64,000 bases of DNA from the IMG/VR virus record IMGVR_UViG_3300042691_048368, positions 1 through 64,000 of that record; one strand, written 5' to 3'. Positions 23,620-35,422 of the stretch are shown piece by piece (position 1 is the first letter of the stretch; each line of letters opens with the position of its first letter). The translations under genes were made by a program, and so were the position numbers. Source of the stretch: a virus. The notes under the pieces are model-generated. The model was given only the letters and a program-made list of their open reading frames with translations, made no database searches and had not been told where the DNA came from.

Positions 23620-24777
23620 TTATTGAAAAAACTGAGCGTTCGAATTGATCTTCATAACATCCTCTTGTGTGAAATACTGAGGTGTCTTTTGAATTTGTGC
23701 TAGTAGATCTCGGTAGGTTGCAGCTCCCTCATCTTTACGTCCAGTGTAGAAACAAGCTGCAGCATGTACTTCCAAGAATCTCCAAACATATAGAGACTCA
23801 TCTACGAAAAGAAGTCTAGTTGGGTAAGGGTTTTTTCCATGAAGACTTTCTTTCGCAAACTTGGTGTAGATGTATGCATTGTGCCATTCACCATTACTAA
23901 GGTAATAATCAATAATTGCTTTGATTGGTTCAGCTCTGAGTGGGTCCATAGCATAAGCTTTGAGAAACTCTTGATGCACTTTATACCAAGGTTCTTCGAG
24001 AACCTTCATAATGGTTCCAACTCTGAATTGGGAATAAAATCTTTCTTCTTCATAACCATCACTTCTACCAATTCTTTCTTTGTAGTATTTAAGTGACCTC
24101 CTTAATCTTTCATCATTTTCTACTTTATTATCTGGTATAGAAGCTGAATCATGATAGGATTGTGCAGTATAGAAAACCCATCTAGCATTTCTATCTTTAT
24201 TATCAATATAATCTTCAAGAATCATTGAATGTTTCTTGTACTTATCTGGAATGTTACCTTTCCAAGAACCACCATCCATTTGTACCCTCACCGTAATACC
24301 TTCCATAAGACCAGATGAAATACCTTGGTCATCACAAACGATAAATTCATGAACAGGACCATACCATCTGAAATTCTTATTAGTATTCCAACACTCGTTT
24401 CTTGTATATTTCATATTACCGATATAGGTATTGAACATATAAAGATCTTTATCGAGTTTATGTTTATCAAAAGATGGATCAACATCAATAGTCTCGTCTG
24501 CATCAAGCCAAAAAGCGTAATCAGATTTATCCTTGACCATTTGCATAGCGTAATTTCTGCAATTTTCAAAATTGTCAAACGCTTTTTCATAAACAAAACA
24601 AGGAATATTATTATTTTCTCCCCATTTCTTTATGATTTCTTGGGTACCATCAGTTGAACCAGTGTCAACAAATACTGCACAATCAATTATTGATTTTATA
24701 GAGTTCAACATACGTTCTATAACATGTGCTTCGTTTTTAACGATTTGTGAAATTGCTAGTCTATATTGTTTTTTCAT
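23620..24777 (-). CDS. GT2 glycosyltransferase with C-terminal TPR-like helices (SunS/flagellin-GT-like)
   Basis: IVKNEA, VDTGSTDGT, CRNYA, WLDADE, WYGPVHE, FYTAQSY. Confidence 0.85.
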   Translation of the reverse strand: MKKQYRLAISQIVKNEAHVIERMLNSIKSIIDCAVFVDTGSTDGTQEIIKKWGENNNIPCFVYEKAFDNFENCRNYAMQMVKDKSDYAFWLDADETIDVDPSFDKHKLDKDLYMFNTYIGNMKYTRNECWNTNKNFRWYGPVHEFIVCDDQGISSGLMEGITVRVQMDGGSWKGNIPDKYKKHSMILEDYIDNKDRNARWVFYTAQSYHDSASIPDNKVENDERLRRSLKYYKERIGRSDGYEEERFYSQFRVGTIMKVLEEPWYKVHQEFLKAYAMDPLRAEPIKAIIDYYLSNGEWHNAYIYTKFAKESLHGKNPYPTRLLFVDESLYVWRFLEVHAAACFYTGRKDEGAATYRDLLAQIQKTPQYFTQEDVMKINSNAQFFQ

Positions 24778-28466: not shown

Positions 28467-29684
28467 TCAAAAAGGTGTTAAATCTTCTTCAACTTGCTCG
28501 TCATCCAACGGGATGTAAAACATATTCGGTGAATTTATGTGTTCTTGTTGCGACTTTTTCTTACGTAATGATTCTAATAAAATATTATTGTTGAGGTCAT
28601 TGTCTTTGAAGATCCAATCATTCAGTGTAGGATCATACTGAGCATCATCCCTAAGAATGAAAGTGTCAAAGACATCAGAGTGTATACATAAATTCGAGTG
28701 AACGCGCATATCGAGGTAATTTAGATAAAGGGTCTCACTGAATTGGTAGTACAGTTTAGTTTTTTCACACAAAGTTAGATGATCCGAATCATAAGTAGAA
28801 CCATCGGCAGATGATAATGTCCTTATATTCGTATTAATCTGTGGTTTGTGGTTAGATATTTTACCCGACTTAAAATCTAAAAATTTGAATGTATCCATAT
28901 AAGGATAGTAATCGAATTTGAAATTATTAAGATCGAAATTTATTTCCTTATAAATTGTTTTTCCTTTGGACTCGAAAAACAAACTGTTGTTCCACTTTTG
29001 TTCTTTCTTATAAATAAACCCGTTTTCATCTGCCCATTTTTTAAAGTGGAACTGATAAGTTTCATCATCAATGGTATAAATTCTGTCCATTATCTTTTCA
29101 CCATTAATAGACCACAAGAGTGCTCGGCCAATCAACATATGATTATCTGTTAAAAGTACGAGTAAAGAAATTTTGTCTTTATTATCAGTATAAAGGCGCA
29201 GATAATCTTGACATTGATCATATTTCATGCAAGAATTACCAAGTGATCCAGACTCTGAGAGATAAGATTCATAGTGATAATAATGATAAATATTATCGCC
29301 ATTTACGACTTTGAAATTTGAATTAATTTTTGTCTGTACATTTTTAAAGAGCTGTGAGAAATTTTCTACTTCCCTTGGGTGGATGTTTCGGAAAAGTTTC
29401 GAAATGAATGCGCCGGGTTTGATGTGGAACCTTTTTGGAGAAGTCCACAAATCCTCTCCATTTTGCAAAAGATTTTCTATTCTTTCTTGAGTTAAATATG
29501 AAATCTTTGTTCTGTCTGATTGGGAAATAGAAATATAGTTGATGTGATTATCAACTAGGTTTTCTATTGAGTGTCTCTGTTTCAATAGAAGTCTAGCGAT
29601 TTCGGAATTATCCTTGATTTGTTCGAGGATGTAATCTAATTCTAATGATGTAATAATATCGGAGGTTTTTCTTGTATACGCCAT
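28467..29684 (-). CDS. Conserved phage protein of the SCM/GRALLW/MDRIY type; paralog A (early promoter)
   Basis: GSLGNSCMKY, IGRALLW, IMDRIY, YPYMDT; clear similarity to 30868..32004. Confidence 0.75.
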   Translation of the reverse strand: MAYTRKTSDIITSLELDYILEQIKDNSEIARLLLKQRHSIENLVDNHINYISISQSDRTKISYLTQERIENLLQNGEDLWTSPKRFHIKPGAFISKLFRNIHPREVENFSQLFKNVQTKINSNFKVVNGDNIYHYYHYESYLSESGSLGNSCMKYDQCQDYLRLYTDNKDKISLLVLLTDNHMLIGRALLWSINGEKIMDRIYTIDDETYQFHFKKWADENGFIYKKEQKWNNSLFFESKGKTIYKEINFDLNNFKFDYYPYMDTFKFLDFKSGKISNHKPQINTNIRTLSSADGSTYDSDHLTLCEKTKLYYQFSETLYLNYLDMRVHSNLCIHSDVFDTFILRDDAQYDPTLNDWIFKDNDLNNNILLESLRKKKSQQEHINSPNMFYIPLDDEQVEEDLTPF

Positions 29685-30867: not shown

Positions 30868-32004
30868 ATGTTAAATAATTTTAATGGGTTCATTCTAGAG
30901 AAACAAGTAGTATCTTTATTATTGGAGAATGATTTAAACGCGTCACCTGAGTTTCTTGCAAGATTGAAAAAGATAAGAGATAGGAGTAAAGTAGCTCAAA
31001 TACTCTACGATTTATTCAGTGCAGAATACTATATTGTAAAAGATTTGCCTCAGAACTGGATTGATGTGACAAATGAGCCAGAAATGATTTCATTTTTATC
31101 TGATAGTAGAGCTAAAAGAACTCCGATGCAATGGGATGAAGATAGTTCAAAATATTATGATGTTTCTGGCAGAGGTCAAATAAAAGTTGGTAGGTTTGCA
31201 CAAGCTTTATTAAATGATCCAGATGTGATTGAAGATTTAGATTTATCCTTTGTTGAAAACTATATTCAAGGACTAACACCAAAAGATTTCGAAGATTTTG
31301 TAAACTTGTACAAATCTGAATTTGTAGTAGTTTCTAATGAGTTTAAATTGGTAAAGGGTGATGAAATCCCTTACTATTATGATTTTATGAACTATGCATA
31401 TCCCGACAAGGGACACTTGGGTGCATCTTGTATGAGGTATACACATTGTCAAAGATACTTCAGTATCTACAAAAAAAACCCAGAGGTGTGTCAATTATTG
31501 GCGTATGTAAATCAAGAAAATAAAGTTTTGGGTAGGGCACTTGTCTGGAAACTAGATAAGAAAGTTGATGGGTGTCCAGCAGAATATTTTATGGACAGAG
31601 TTTATTGTGCAAATGATAGTGATATGATAAAGTTCAAAAATTACGCTAAAGAGAAGGGTTGGGTTATGAAAAACAAAAATGCATCTGATGCGTATGAGGC
31701 TTTATTCTTCAACTACAATGATAAAGTCATTTTATCACACATTAGTGTTCAATTGAAAGAATCAAATTTTGCATTTTACCCTTTCATAGACACTCTGTCT
31801 TTATTGAACGAAACAAACGGTAAGTTACATAATGTTTTAGGGAAAAATTGTATTGAACTTACTTCGACAGATGGAGATTTTTACACGCCCGATACGAACA
31901 AAAGTAGGAGGGAAAATCTGAAAGAAATGCTAAACGAAATACTCAATGATAATAATTATTTGGGTTATAGAGACCTTATAGAAACTGCATTATCAAATCT
32001 TTAA
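30868..32004 (+). CDS. Conserved phage protein of the SCM/GRALVW/MDRVY type; paralog B (late, CTS-like N-terminus)
   Basis: GHLGASCMRY, LGRALVW, FMDRVY, YPFIDT; MLNNFNGFILE; TAATATATA at 30854-30862. Confidence 0.75.
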   Translation: MLNNFNGFILEKQVVSLLLENDLNASPEFLARLKKIRDRSKVAQILYDLFSAEYYIVKDLPQNWIDVTNEPEMISFLSDSRAKRTPMQWDEDSSKYYDVSGRGQIKVGRFAQALLNDPDVIEDLDLSFVENYIQGLTPKDFEDFVNLYKSEFVVVSNEFKLVKGDEIPYYYDFMNYAYPDKGHLGASCMRYTHCQRYFSIYKKNPEVCQLLAYVNQENKVLGRALVWKLDKKVDGCPAEYFMDRVYCANDSDMIKFKNYAKEKGWVMKNKNASDAYEALFFNYNDKVILSHISVQLKESNFAFYPFIDTLSLLNETNGKLHNVLGKNCIELTSTDGDFYTPDTNKSRRENLKEMLNEILNDNNYLGYRDLIETALSNL

Positions 32005-32496: not shown

Positions 32497-32543
32497 AAAA
32501 ATAGGGTTTTTTATTTATATATACTTCAAATAGGTAAGTTATC

Positions 32544-33266
32544 ATGAAAATAAAAACTCTTTTCATTAGTGACATACATCTTGGAAATCCAAATTCTCAA
32601 GCTGATAAATTGTTAAGAATTTTAAAAGAGTATGATTTTGAAAATCTTTTCATAATTGGTGACTTCATCGATATGACTTATCTCAAAAGAAAGTTTTATT
32701 GGGATCAAAATCATTCGACTGTTATACAGAAGATCTTGAGACTATCAAGAAAGGGTTGTAAGGTGACTTACATTTTGGGAAATCATGACTATTATATAAG
32801 AAGTGTAATTGAAGAAGGAAATATACATTTCGGAGAAATCCTAATTTGTGATGATTATGTTTATCAAACTAAAGGTGGTGAAAAAATCTACCTTACACAT
32901 GGTGACTGTTTTGATGGTTTTGTGAGAATAAGTCCGTGGTTATATTGGTTGGGGGATGTTTCATATGAGTTGTCAATAAAAATAAACAAAATATACAATT
33001 GGTTCAGGAGATTATTCAAATTAGAATACTGGTCCTTTTCAGCTTACATGAAAACAAAAGTAAAAAGTGCAATTAGTTTCTTGTCTGAGTATAGGAAGAT
33101 TTCTGAAGTCAAAATCAAGGAAATGAACTGTGACTCAATAATGATTGGTCATACTCATAATCCTGAAATAAGTAATAATTATTATAACACTGGCGATTTT
33201 TGCGAAAGTTGTTCTTATATCATTGAGGATCTTGATGGTAATATAAAATTATTATATGTGAAGTGA
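32544..33266 (+). CDS. plcP: PlcP-like metallophosphoesterase (phospholipase C; LpxH superfamily)
   Basis: FISDIHLG, GDFID, YWDQNHSTVIQKILRLSRKG, GNHD (His, not the Arg of LpxH GNRD), HGDCFD, WLGD.SY, YWSFS, GHTH, NTGDFCESC. Confidence 0.7.
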   Translation: MKIKTLFISDIHLGNPNSQADKLLRILKEYDFENLFIIGDFIDMTYLKRKFYWDQNHSTVIQKILRLSRKGCKVTYILGNHDYYIRSVIEEGNIHFGEILICDDYVYQTKGGEKIYLTHGDCFDGFVRISPWLYWLGDVSYELSIKINKIYNWFRRLFKLEYWSFSAYMKTKVKSAISFLSEYRKISEVKIKEMNCDSIMIGHTHNPEISNNYYNTGDFCESCSYIIEDLDGNIKLLYVK

Positions 33267-34219
33267 AAATATTATATGGTATTCAGTCAACAGGAAACGG
33301 TCATATATCAAGATCAGCAAAAATAGTAAATAAACTTATTAGAAAAGGTTTCATGGTGGATATCCTTTTCTCTGGTAAAAATTCACAATTGGCATTTCCA
33401 TTTCCTATAAAATATAATTTCACCGGTCTGACATTTCATTATGACGGTAGTGGTAATATTTCCTATTGGAAAACATTTAAGGACATACACATCATACAAT
33501 TCTTAAATGATATTAAACTAGACCTTACATCTTATGACTTGGTAATTTCAGATTTTGAGCCAATCACTGCCTGGGCGTCAAAGTTACAAAAAAGGAAATG
33601 TGTAGGTATAAGTAACCAATGTTCTTACATTTCAAATAAAGTACCTAGACCTGAAAAAAAAGATTTTCTTGGTGAATCAATACTCAAATGGATGGCTCCT
33701 GTGTCAAATCCAATTGGATTACATTTTGAAAAATATGACGATTTTATATACACTCCGATTATAAAAGAATCCTTGATGAAAATATCAACAAGTGATAAAG
33801 GTCATTATGTGATTTATTTGCCAACTTTTGAACTCGAAAATGTGTTAAGTCAGGTATATAAAATAAAAACGGTTAGGTTTGACATCTTCACTCACATAAA
33901 AAAACCTCATTGGATTGGTAAATGTCATGTTTTACCAATAAAAAAAGATTTATTTGATGAAAGTATAAGGACTTGTCACGGTGTAATAAGTACAGGAGGG
34001 TTTCAAACTTCAGTTGAATCCTTATACTTAGGTAAAAAATTGATGGTCATACCAACAAAAGGTCAATATGAGCAGTTATGTAATGCTGAATCATTATCCA
34101 AAATGGGATGTGATGTGGGTTTATTAACCGATATACCAAAATTTATAGATGGGGGTAAAAACATTAAAATCGAATGGGATGACCCGTCTGATGAAATTAT
34201 TAAAAGATTGTTGAATTAG
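33263..34219 (+). CDS. GT-B glycosyltransferase, MJ1255/VC2487-like (GT28-related)
   Basis: MKILYGIQSTGNGHISRS, LVISDFEPITAW, STGGFQTSVESLYLGKK, PTKGQYEQLCNA; GTGA overlap with the plcP-like gene. Confidence 0.85.
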   Translation: MKILYGIQSTGNGHISRSAKIVNKLIRKGFMVDILFSGKNSQLAFPFPIKYNFTGLTFHYDGSGNISYWKTFKDIHIIQFLNDIKLDLTSYDLVISDFEPITAWASKLQKRKCVGISNQCSYISNKVPRPEKKDFLGESILKWMAPVSNPIGLHFEKYDDFIYTPIIKESLMKISTSDKGHYVIYLPTFELENVLSQVYKIKTVRFDIFTHIKKPHWIGKCHVLPIKKDLFDESIRTCHGVISTGGFQTSVESLYLGKKLMVIPTKGQYEQLCNAESLSKMGCDVGLLTDIPKFIDGGKNIKIEWDDPSDEIIKRLLN

Positions 34220-35233: not shown

Positions 35234-35422
35234 TTAGTGTGCAGCTGAGTCAACTTTAACACTGTCTGCGCAACAAGCTTTAGTTGTGTCACAAGCAGTA
35301 GAATCACAAGAAGTTGAATCCTTAACTACCGCAGTAGAATCTGTAGCAGTTCCTTCTTCAGAAGAAGAACCACATGAAACTAGGAAAGAAACAACTGCAA
35401 ACATCAAAAATAGTTTTTTCAT
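35234..35422 (-). CDS. Small lipoprotein rich in Bacteroidota O-glycosylation sequons
   Basis: Signal II MKKLFLMFAVVSFLVS-C; DST x3, DTT, DSV, DSA. Confidence 0.8.
   Translation of the reverse strand: MKKLFLMFAVVSFLVSCGSSSEEGTATDSTAVVKDSTSCDSTACDTTKACCADSVKVDSAAH

Follow-up and report, generated by a model that had tools for sequence, protein, structure and literature searches.

The DNA window analysed here comprises 64,000 nucleotides, positions 1 to 64,000 of the IMG/VR virus record IMGVR_UViG_3300042691_048368. It contains two genes that the original prediction described as translationally coupled through a GTGA overlap. This is indeed the case: the open reading frames 32544-33266 and 33263-34219 meet at a junction that reads ATGTGAAGTGAAAAT, where the TGA stop codon of the first (33264-33266) overlaps the GTG start codon of the second (33263-33265). 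The features of the locus are as follows.

32516..32523, plus strand: TATATATA, a promoter-like motif 20 nt ahead of the phosphoesterase ATG, within the 47 nt that separate this gene from the divergent UvsY-like gene (from the sequence; putative promoter)
32544..33266, plus strand: PlcP-clade metallophosphoesterase of 240 aa, predicted to be an Mn-dependent phospholipase C and bearing a helical lid of the LpxH type (from Pfam, LpxH models, identity, structure model and trees)
33263..33266, plus strand: GTGA stop/start overlap, translational coupling (from the sequence)
33263..34219, plus strand: MJ1255-like GT-B glycosyltransferase of 318 aa with a GTG start, GT1/GT28 structural group, predicted to glycosylate the lipid product (from Pfam, TIGR00661 and structure model)

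The neighbours of the pair are DNA-metabolism genes (UvsY-like and SbcD-like), and a second glycosyltransferase, of the GT2 type, is encoded elsewhere in the window. The 95-kb record is a fragment of a freshwater phage of roughly 0.5 Mb (0.46-0.56 Mb), as large as had been anticipated, whose host probably belongs to the Bacteroidota. The habitat, across at least 17 studies, is fresh water.

The 240-aa protein carries every metallophosphoesterase motif that had been claimed for it (D10-x-H12, G39-D40, G79-N-H-D82, H119, and G202-H-x-H205), and these motifs are invariant across 86 relatives. Its match to the Pfam Metallophos family scores 53.6 bits against a cut-off of 21.5. Two further segments had been singled out; YWDQNHSTVIQKILRLSRKG occurs exactly as given, and the WLGD...YWSFS segment exists too, but with a different spacing after the Y, where six residues rather than three precede the first N. 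The structure model (pLDDT 92) has a helical lid insertion, with predicted helices at residues 120-193, and the top 22 among the fold matches listed (ranks to 25) are all LpxH. When compared with solved structures, the single sequence retrieved only a weak, unrelated phosphoesterase, whereas a family profile retrieved LpxH. The protein thus combines the elements of a PlcP core: a calcineurin-like phosphoesterase core, all metal motifs, and an LpxH-type helical lid.

Full-length comparison (E about 1e-52) showed the window phosphoesterase to be 38% identical to the only LpxH-like gene on a 3.7-Mb S. meliloti replicon. Identity is again 38% to a P. aeruginosa gene whose end overlaps the start of a family-1 glycosyltransferase gene by 4 bp. 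We take these reference genes to be SMc00171 and PA3219, two characterised PlcPs, an assignment made by organism, uniqueness, and gene neighbourhood rather than by locus tags. The layout of the P. aeruginosa locus is that of plcP-agt1 (PMC8528852). Identity to E. coli LpxH is only 23%, with many gaps. Scored with the NCBIfam models for LpxH, the window protein reaches 50.3 bits against a cut-off of 134 (NF003743) and 34.7 against 190 (TIGR01854), with matches that cover the N-terminal half only, while the two reference PlcPs score 38-55 bits and E. coli LpxH scores 364 and 389. Membership in the LpxH equivalog was rejected on these curated cut-offs.

The comparison with characterised PlcP and LpxH by phylogeny gave the same answer. 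A careful tree (LG+C20, 48 rows) separated LpxH from all PlcP-like rows with support of 100/99 and placed the window protein within a phage clade (100/100) nested among rows that include both reference PlcPs; no grouping with LpxH was seen. A quick tree of 174 rows agrees, leaving the protein outside the LpxH clade and on the PlcP side. Moreover, ten positions conserved in PlcP and absent from LpxH, defined by our own alignment rather than by a published definition, are all present: W53, R86, D124, G137, S164, S166, K170, D218, E221, and E228. Both PlcPs have the same residues there, as do almost all PlcP-like rows; the LpxH rows have others. One proposed marker failed. The GNHD motif, as opposed to GNRD, does not tell PlcP from LpxH, since GNHD also occurs in five LpxH-like proteins of Bacteroidota that cluster with E. 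coli LpxH, and we rejected it as a discriminator. At the level of the clade, the PlcP-like phospholipase C identity is nonetheless borne out by identity, low LpxH scores, trees, and clade residues: judged by its sequence, the first gene encodes a PlcP-clade enzyme and not LpxH. LpxH, the sole solved relative, resembles the window protein in fold, metal ligands, and helical lid, but stands apart in identity (23%), model score (50 bits for the window protein against the cut-off of 134), and clade (100/99), and the window protein, unlike LpxH, has every PlcP-specific residue. Databases label these phage genes LpxH.

The 318-aa product of the second gene matches PF13528 (Glyco_trans_1_3) with 98.7 bits against a cut-off of 25, and PF04101 with 30 bits. 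It had been called an MJ1255-type GT-B enzyme. An MJ1255-like GT-B protein it is, by PF13528; by curated score it is not a member of TIGR00661 (MJ1255/VC2487), on which it reaches 159.4 bits, under the cut-off of 195.9, with residues 2-284 aligned. The best structural matches of its model (pLDDT 93) are YojK, sterol 3-beta-glucosyltransferase, and MurG (Z 21-22.5); the fold places it broadly among GT-B enzymes, several of which, these three included, act on lipophilic acceptors. The P. aeruginosa protein at the Agt1 position matches GT4-type lipid glycosyltransferase models, whereas the window enzyme does not, and BLASTP between the two revealed no similarity (E = 10). We therefore rejected an Agt (GT4) identity for the window glycosyltransferase.

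An alignment-based scan identified 287 viral contigs encoding relatives of the phosphoesterase. Among the 44 close viral loci, defined by at least 57% phosphoesterase identity, an MJ1255-like glycosyltransferase lies within 1.5 kb in 34, in either gene order, and within 150 bp in 31 (6 downstream, 23 upstream on the same strand, and 2 divergent). GT2/GT21 stands in its place at four loci. A survey of the pair in other jumbo phages had been proposed; at these phage loci, a glycosyltransferase of any type lies within 1.5 kb at 38 of the 44. More distant phage relatives have MJ1255-like, GT2, or Agt-type GT4 partners. Five phage fragments lacking an adjacent MJ1255-like gene, four of them 8-17% complete and the fifth 68%, contained none elsewhere either; four of the five have a GT2 partner. 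That this one position is filled by glycosyltransferases of three unrelated families points to a shared lipid acceptor.

The same phosphoesterase/glycosyltransferase pair forms a chromosomal operon in Bacteroidota. Among the 30 best glycosyltransferase loci of Bacteroidota, 25 have a PlcP-like gene directly upstream of a glycosyltransferase gene whose product is 36-45% identical to the window enzyme, and in Parabacteroides distasonis the two genes again share a 4-bp overlap. In a second Bacteroidota glycosyltransferase subfamily, of about 30% identity, none of eight loci checked had a phosphoesterase neighbour, indicating that the linkage is specific to the closer subfamily. Found on dozens of independent phage contigs and on Bacteroidota chromosomes, the pairing is far beyond chance, and, on this conservation of gene neighbourhood, the phosphoesterase is functionally tied to a glycosyltransferase.

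The two enzymes might in principle act on substrates other than lipids, with phage DNA or virion protein as the target of the glycosyltransferase and a nucleotide or nucleotide sugar as that of the phosphoesterase. Phage DNA glucosyltransferases are likewise GT-B enzymes, and the pair sits beside UvsY-like and SbcD-like genes. We nevertheless consider this highly improbable: the pair exists as an operon in many Bacteroidota outside any phage, the lid architecture of the phosphoesterase is a lipid-binding one, and the GT21- and Agt-type partners belong to families of lipid glycosyltransferases (PMC4796936).

Another alternative keeps a lipid-linked substrate but a different one. Here the phosphoesterase would cut some other phosphodiester or pyrophosphate, with UDP-2,3-diacylglucosamine, CDP-diacylglycerol, a polyprenyl-diphosphate sugar, or a phosphosphingolipid among the candidates, and the glycosyltransferase would act on the product, altering lipid A, LPS, or an envelope glycoconjugate. 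The fold that the phosphoesterase shares with LpxH and its database name are compatible with this, as is the fact that MurG, an enzyme of a polyprenyl-linked substrate, ties for best structural match to the glycosyltransferase. Furthermore, two related phages have an Exo_endo_phos gene (PF03372, endonuclease/exonuclease/phosphatase) between their GT2 and phosphoesterase genes, and this family includes sphingomyelinase-type enzymes. However, the protein falls outside the LpxH clade and far under the LpxH cut-offs while carrying the PlcP-clade residues, the glycosyltransferase is not LpxB-like by Pfam, and all five Bacteroidota genomes checked possess a separate, better-scoring LpxH-like gene of their own. 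We regard a substrate of this kind as decidedly unlikely.

We favour instead, with moderate confidence, the reading that this phage carries a copy of PlcP-plus-glycosyltransferase lipid renovation in its Bacteroidota form, which would turn phospholipid into diacylglycerol and then glycolipid with a modest gain of phosphate. The phage thus probably rewrites the host membrane during infection. As family membership suggests, the metal-dependent phosphoesterase would use its aromatic and basic helical lid to dock on the host membrane from the inside and remove the phosphate head group of glycerophospholipids, in such hosts mainly phosphatidylethanolamine, to leave diacylglycerol. The coupled GT-B enzyme, to judge from its fold and conserved pairing, would then transfer a sugar from a nucleotide sugar to the diacylglycerol. 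Enzymes of the GT1/GT28 group are inverting, and the phosphorus-free glycolipid would probably be beta-linked if the phage enzyme inverts as they do. The freed phospho-head group would enter the phosphate pool, and the bilayer would remain intact.

The pair is probably transcribed from a promoter motif that belongs to the phage. Its core, ATATATA, is found at only 26 places in the window and lies within 45 nt upstream of 24 of its 68 genes; AATATATA has 29 matches where 10.9 +/- 3.2 are expected. The ATATATA-type motif upstream of the pair also precedes candidate structural genes, which argues for programmed rather than phosphate-responsive expression. With such a promoter the lipid swap would take place in every infected cell instead of being triggered by phosphate starvation. 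In the 47-nt upstream spacer we recognised by eye no repeat like the Pho box of the E. coli type; for Bacteroidota, we know of no established consensus.

The original prediction offered, as one of two options, that the phage strips phosphate from host membranes to fund its very large genome. The genome is very large, but the rest of this motive fared less well. Neither pstS nor phoH was found in the 95-kb record; in five near-complete relatives (281-511 kb) pstS is absent and phoH lies far from the pair. In Dokdonia, membrane phospholipid accounts for 2.63 million P atoms per cell, and starvation removed about a third of them (PMC4796936, Table S1). A genome of 0.46-0.56 Mb needs about 1 million P atoms, so that host lipid phosphorus covers about 1-3 genome copies; all 2.63 million atoms amount to about 2.5 genomes of 0.5 Mb. 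Host lipid phosphorus cannot fund a large burst, and a phosphate-harvest motive for the pair is weakly supported. Elsewhere in the family, a copy in Mitsuaria lies beside ppk1 and ppx, and Pelagibacter phage Mosig has a PlcP-like copy beside pstS.

The phosphorus yield is small beside a 0.5-Mb genome, the promoter motif is of the phage type, and no phosphate gene lies nearby, all of which would also suit the same lipid chemistry selected for another effect, namely a changed envelope that blocks superinfection via membrane-embedded receptors, stabilises the membrane in a long infection, or sets the timing of lysis. Cells that renovate their lipids reportedly have altered membrane proteins, phage receptors among them, and altered phage attachment (PMC9804370; PMC9938194), and the GT2 gene in the window fits this idea as well. 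We think it unlikely as the selected effect, as exclusion has no direct support and a PlcP-like gene stands beside pstS in other phages; the phage, moreover, lives in fresh water, where phosphorus is commonly limiting. For the preferred renovation of lipids, the benefit would most likely be that a modest amount of phosphate is gained in fresh water poor in phosphorus, perhaps along with changed properties of the envelope.

It is possible, if somewhat doubtful, that a whole clade of 0.3-0.5-Mb freshwater phages reprograms host membrane head groups as a fixed, phage-promoter-driven, and phosphate-independent step of infection, with the PlcP-type lipase retained and its partner (MJ1255-like, GT2/GT21, or Agt) freely exchanged. 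Virus-made glycolipids would then be general in infected Bacteroidota, with roles in phosphorus recycling and envelope control, and part of the glycolipid in natural waters would be of viral origin. When phosphorus is scarce, a major response of bacteria is to replace phospholipids with lipids that lack phosphorus. Auxiliary genes for phosphate uptake are well known in phages; a lipid swap encoded by a virus would make the host membrane one more resource under viral manipulation. The PlcP reading would also correct the routine lpxH (lipid A gene) labels on these phage genes and give the uncharacterised MJ1255-like glycosyltransferases a testable substrate. Three unrelated glycosyltransferase families swapped beside one conserved lipase would be a clean natural experiment that points to a shared lipid acceptor, and since the pair is small, soluble, and easily expressed, the prediction can be checked directly in E. 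coli.

The closest known counterpart is bacterial. A listing from 2016 shows plcP of Bacteroidetes, including Dokdonia MED134, Polaribacter MED152, and Cytophaga hutchinsonii, beside an 'uncharacterised glycosyltransferase' (PMC4796936, Table S2), which we infer, with support from the P. distasonis example, to be of the MJ1255-like type. The two families and their order are those of the window pair. The phosphoesterase copies of the Bacteroidetes operon, however, are only 28-34% identical to the phage enzyme and occupy another part of the PlcP tree; as the Bacteroidota operon copies do not form the sister group of the phage clade, the pair was not simply lifted from a sampled host operon. Dokdonia MED134 plcP is induced under phosphate starvation (PMC4796936), and the lipids reported to rise there are aminolipids, not glycolipids, which counts against the glycolipid step of the preferred reading. 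The original prediction supposed that the phage module might be undescribed. Its bacterial form was already listed; in the literature searched, of which coverage was incomplete and which does not prove novelty, we found no description of PlcP or lpxH as a phage-borne auxiliary gene.

In the PlcP-Agt operons (S. meliloti SMc00171; P. aeruginosa PA3219-PA3218; PlcP-Agt of SAR11 HTCC7211; PlcP of Phaeobacter MED193) the first enzyme belongs to the same clade and has in common with the window phosphoesterase 38% identity, the clade-specific residues, and the lid-bearing fold; in P. aeruginosa the glycosyltransferase gene is coupled by a 4-base overlap, as in the window. Their partner is Agt, a retaining GT4 enzyme, whereas that of the window is the unrelated MJ1255-like GT-B enzyme of the GT1/GT28 structural group. 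The window pair is, moreover, virus-borne and preceded by a phage promoter-like motif, with no Pho box recognised. The pstS and phoH genes of cyanophages and pelagiphages are likewise host-derived metabolic genes carried by phages of nutrient-poor waters; in the present clade, the pair is unclustered with phosphate genes and would act not on uptake but on the membrane lipid.

The two genes lie on one strand and meet a convergent gene.

32544-33266, + strand: phosphoesterase ORF, 240 aa, all calcineurin-type phosphoesterase motifs, Pfam Metallophos
33263-34219, + strand: glycosyltransferase ORF, 318 aa, GTG start, PF13528 and PF04101
34216-35118, other strand: convergent gene, four-base overlap with the 3' end of the glycosyltransferase gene

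The GTGA overlap of the original prediction was confirmed at 33263, where the stop of the first gene meets the GTG start of the second, and every calcineurin-type motif claimed for the first gene was found. Both sequence signatures quoted for the phosphoesterase are also present, although the spacing of one had been slightly misquoted.

Databases label the relatives of this phosphoesterase LpxH, an identity that model scores, trees and clade residues argue against for the window protein. On two NCBI LpxH equivalog models (cut-offs 134 and 190 bits) it scored 50 and 35 bits, with only its N-terminal half matched, as against 364 and 389 bits for the positive control, E. coli LpxH. Like the phage protein, the presumed PlcPs of S. 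meliloti and P. aeruginosa gave 38-55 bits. These references came from chromosomal records wrongly filed among plasmids. The former was chosen as the sole LpxH-like gene of a 3.7-Mb replicon and the latter by its layout, with a family-1 glycosyltransferase gene downstream at a 4-bp overlap, which matches the published PA3219-PA3218 arrangement (PMC8528852). On these genomic features we equate the two with the characterised PlcPs. Against each of them the phage protein shows 38% identity along its entire length (E about 1e-52); against E. coli LpxH the figure is 23%, in a heavily gapped alignment.

Trees of 174 rows and, under a site-heterogeneous model, of a careful 48 rows agreed. Both set E. 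coli LpxH and Bacteroidota LpxH-like proteins across a long branch (100/99) from all PlcP-like proteins, and so placed the window protein on the PlcP side, as had been predicted. It falls within a 100/100 clade made up almost wholly of viral contigs, nested among rows that include both presumed PlcPs. At ten alignment positions that split the two sides, it carries the PlcP state in 10/10. The proposed criterion of GNHD versus GNRD failed, because Bacteroidota LpxH-like proteins also have GNHD. In all five Bacteroidota genomes checked, an LpxH-like gene that scored better coexists with a distinct PlcP-like gene. The predicted architecture is the lid-bearing LpxH fold, common to PlcP, since the top 22 listed fold matches of the AlphaFold model (pLDDT 92; ranks to 25) are all LpxH; a profile of the family likewise aligned to crystal structures of LpxH over the full length (E 2e-17).

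The partner had been called an MJ1255-type GT-B enzyme. The GT-B fold (model pLDDT 93) was borne out and PF13528 was hit, but the TIGR MJ1255/VC2487 model, although aligned over almost its whole length, gave 159 bits, under its cut-off of 196. The best structural matches, tied at Z 21-22.5, were Bacillus YojK, yeast sterol 3-beta-glucosyltransferase, MurG and natural-product GT1 enzymes. The closest protein clusters are Bacteroidota PF13528 families, and our literature search found no characterisation of the MJ1255 family. A second window glycosyltransferase (23620-24777, - strand), of the GT2 family (PHROG beta-1,4-glycosyltransferase, E 4e-26), is unrelated to the paired enzyme.

Relatives of the phosphoesterase occurred on 287 IMG/VR contigs, the best 80 of which were taken for gene context: 44 close loci (phosphoesterase identity at least 57%) and 36 distant ones.

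Glycosyltransferase neighbours in the 44 close viral loci
MJ1255-like within 150 bp, downstream as in the window: 6/44
MJ1255-like within 150 bp, upstream, same strand: 23/44
MJ1255-like within 150 bp, divergent: 2/44
MJ1255-like between 150 bp and 1.5 kb: 3/44
Short GT2/GT21-type enzyme directly upstream: 4/44
Neither type within 1.5 kb: 6/44

The survey thus found the pair in other phages, with an MJ1255-like partner within 1.5 kb in 34 of the 44. Of the six loci in the last row, two end at a contig edge; in another (L027) both types of glycosyltransferase lie some 4.5 kb off. Among the distant loci, 11 had an MJ1255-like partner, seven a GT2 and two an Agt-type GT4. Adjacency has outlasted both a reversed gene order and swaps of the partner for glycosyltransferases of unrelated families, which is strong evidence that the two predicted activities belong to a single pathway and share an intermediate. 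In two of the four GT2/GT21 loci an Exo_endo_phos-family gene stands between the two (viral loci L016:4447-6729 and L049:4416-6720), in the order GT2/GT21-type, Exo_endo_phos, PlcP-like, all overlapping or abutting. This family includes sphingomyelinase-type enzymes, and the three-gene variant could bring phosphosphingolipids into the head-group swap.

The pair has a cellular counterpart. The glycosyltransferase was present in 151 of 301 sampled Bacteroidota genomes. Of its 30 best loci there (36-45% identity), 25 have a PlcP-like gene immediately upstream on the same strand; in Parabacteroides distasonis the pair has a 4-bp overlap. Eight Bacteroidota loci, in as many genomes, checked from a second MJ1255-like subfamily (L140-L147, about 30% identity to the phage enzyme) had no PlcP-like neighbour. 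Published tabulations place plcP beside an 'uncharacterised glycosyltransferase' in about forty Bacteroidetes, including Dokdonia MED134, Polaribacter MED152 and Cytophaga hutchinsonii; in phosphate-starved MED134, plcP was induced and phospholipid fell by a third (PMC4796936). One Bacteroidota chromosome (OZ123195.1; L006:4953-6943) encodes a phosphoesterase that shares 60% identity with the phage enzyme and falls inside the phage clade. Its gene has ordinary cellular neighbours (AcrB, Sua5), and a GT2/GT21 gene converges on it; two further Bacteroidota MAGs, one of them a Kapaibacterium, hold nearly identical copies. This suggests phage-host gene exchange, in one direction or the other.

The parent record (94,997 bases, IMG/VR), whose first 64 kb make up the window, was rated 17% complete by CheckV, which implies a genome of about half a megabase. 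Uncultured phages of 635 and 642 kb match part of the window at 67% DNA identity, and the nearest near-complete relative by phosphoesterase gene is a 464,605-bp virus record (98% complete). Among the products encoded in the window are an SbcD/gp47-like nuclease, a baseplate wedge subunit and, from the gene directly upstream of the phosphoesterase gene, a UvsY-like recombination mediator. Sequencing runs with parts of the region came from fresh water (lake, river, aquaculture; at least 17 studies). From the cellular gene links, a base composition of about 31% G+C and the origin of the glycosyltransferase, we infer a Bacteroidota host. Elsewhere in the window, two paralogues (28467-29684, - strand, 405 aa; 30868-32004, + strand, 378 aa) have common segments including LG.SCM.Y..CQ.Y, GRAL.W and MDR.Y, neither with a Pfam or PHROG match; a 62-aa ORF (35234-35422, - strand) has a lipoprotein-type signal peptide (…FLVSCGSS…) and then a Ser/Thr/Asp/Cys-rich tail.

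Clade membership and the partner-exchange pattern make conversion of phospholipid to diacylglycerol to glycolipid the best-supported prediction; the purpose is less clear. Phosphate recycling, the proposed benefit, agrees with the bacterial role of PlcP, the freshwater habitat and the PlcP-like genes, both annotated UDP-2,3-diacylglucosamine hydrolase, beside divergent pstS in Pelagibacter phage Mosig (L001:3897-5732) and beside ppk1 and ppx in Mitsuaria sp. 7 (L139:2417-5483). Several findings speak against it as the main benefit. Both pstS and phoH are absent from the 94,997-base record; pstS is absent in 5/5 near-complete relatives, whose phoH lies far from the pair. The 47-nt spacer upstream of the phosphoesterase gene, read by eye, shows no repeat like the E. 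coli-type Pho box but does hold an ATATATA-core motif:

32516, 20 nt before the phosphoesterase start codon: promoter-like motif TATATATA

The core occurs only 26 times in the 64-kb window, and 24 of 68 genes, the baseplate wedge gene and large candidate structural genes among them, have it no more than 45 nt upstream (for example at 1933, 20184, 30855, 32516, 36318, 40244 and 48175); AATATATA was found 29 times against 10.9 expected. The element is likely to be a promoter specific to the phage and similar to the T4 late type, and the pair is apparently under phage promoter control. The yield would also be small. A Dokdonia cell has 2.63 million phosphorus atoms in its lipids and loses about 0.9 million of them when starved (PMC4796936 Table S1). 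A genome of 0.46-0.56 Mb takes about one million, so that one to three genome copies would be funded. Finally, starvation raised aminolipids, not glycolipids, in Dokdonia (PMC4796936), and the product of the MJ1255-like type therefore stays a predicted one.

The PlcP pathway is known in bacteria, and its Bacteroidetes arrangement was tabulated in 2016; in the literature searched, with incomplete coverage, we found no description of phage-borne PlcP or of its pairing with a glycosyltransferase in viruses. The pair is best described as a viral version of this pathway in which the partner enzyme is uncharacterised, and its conservation is wide within one huge-phage clade. As in the plcP arrangement of Bacteroidetes, the PlcP-like gene lies upstream of the glycosyltransferase gene, but the window copy is viral. 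With P. aeruginosa PlcP-Agt the pair has in common a 4-bp gene overlap, whereas no similarity could be detected between its glycosyltransferase and the Agt-type GT4 enzyme found there.
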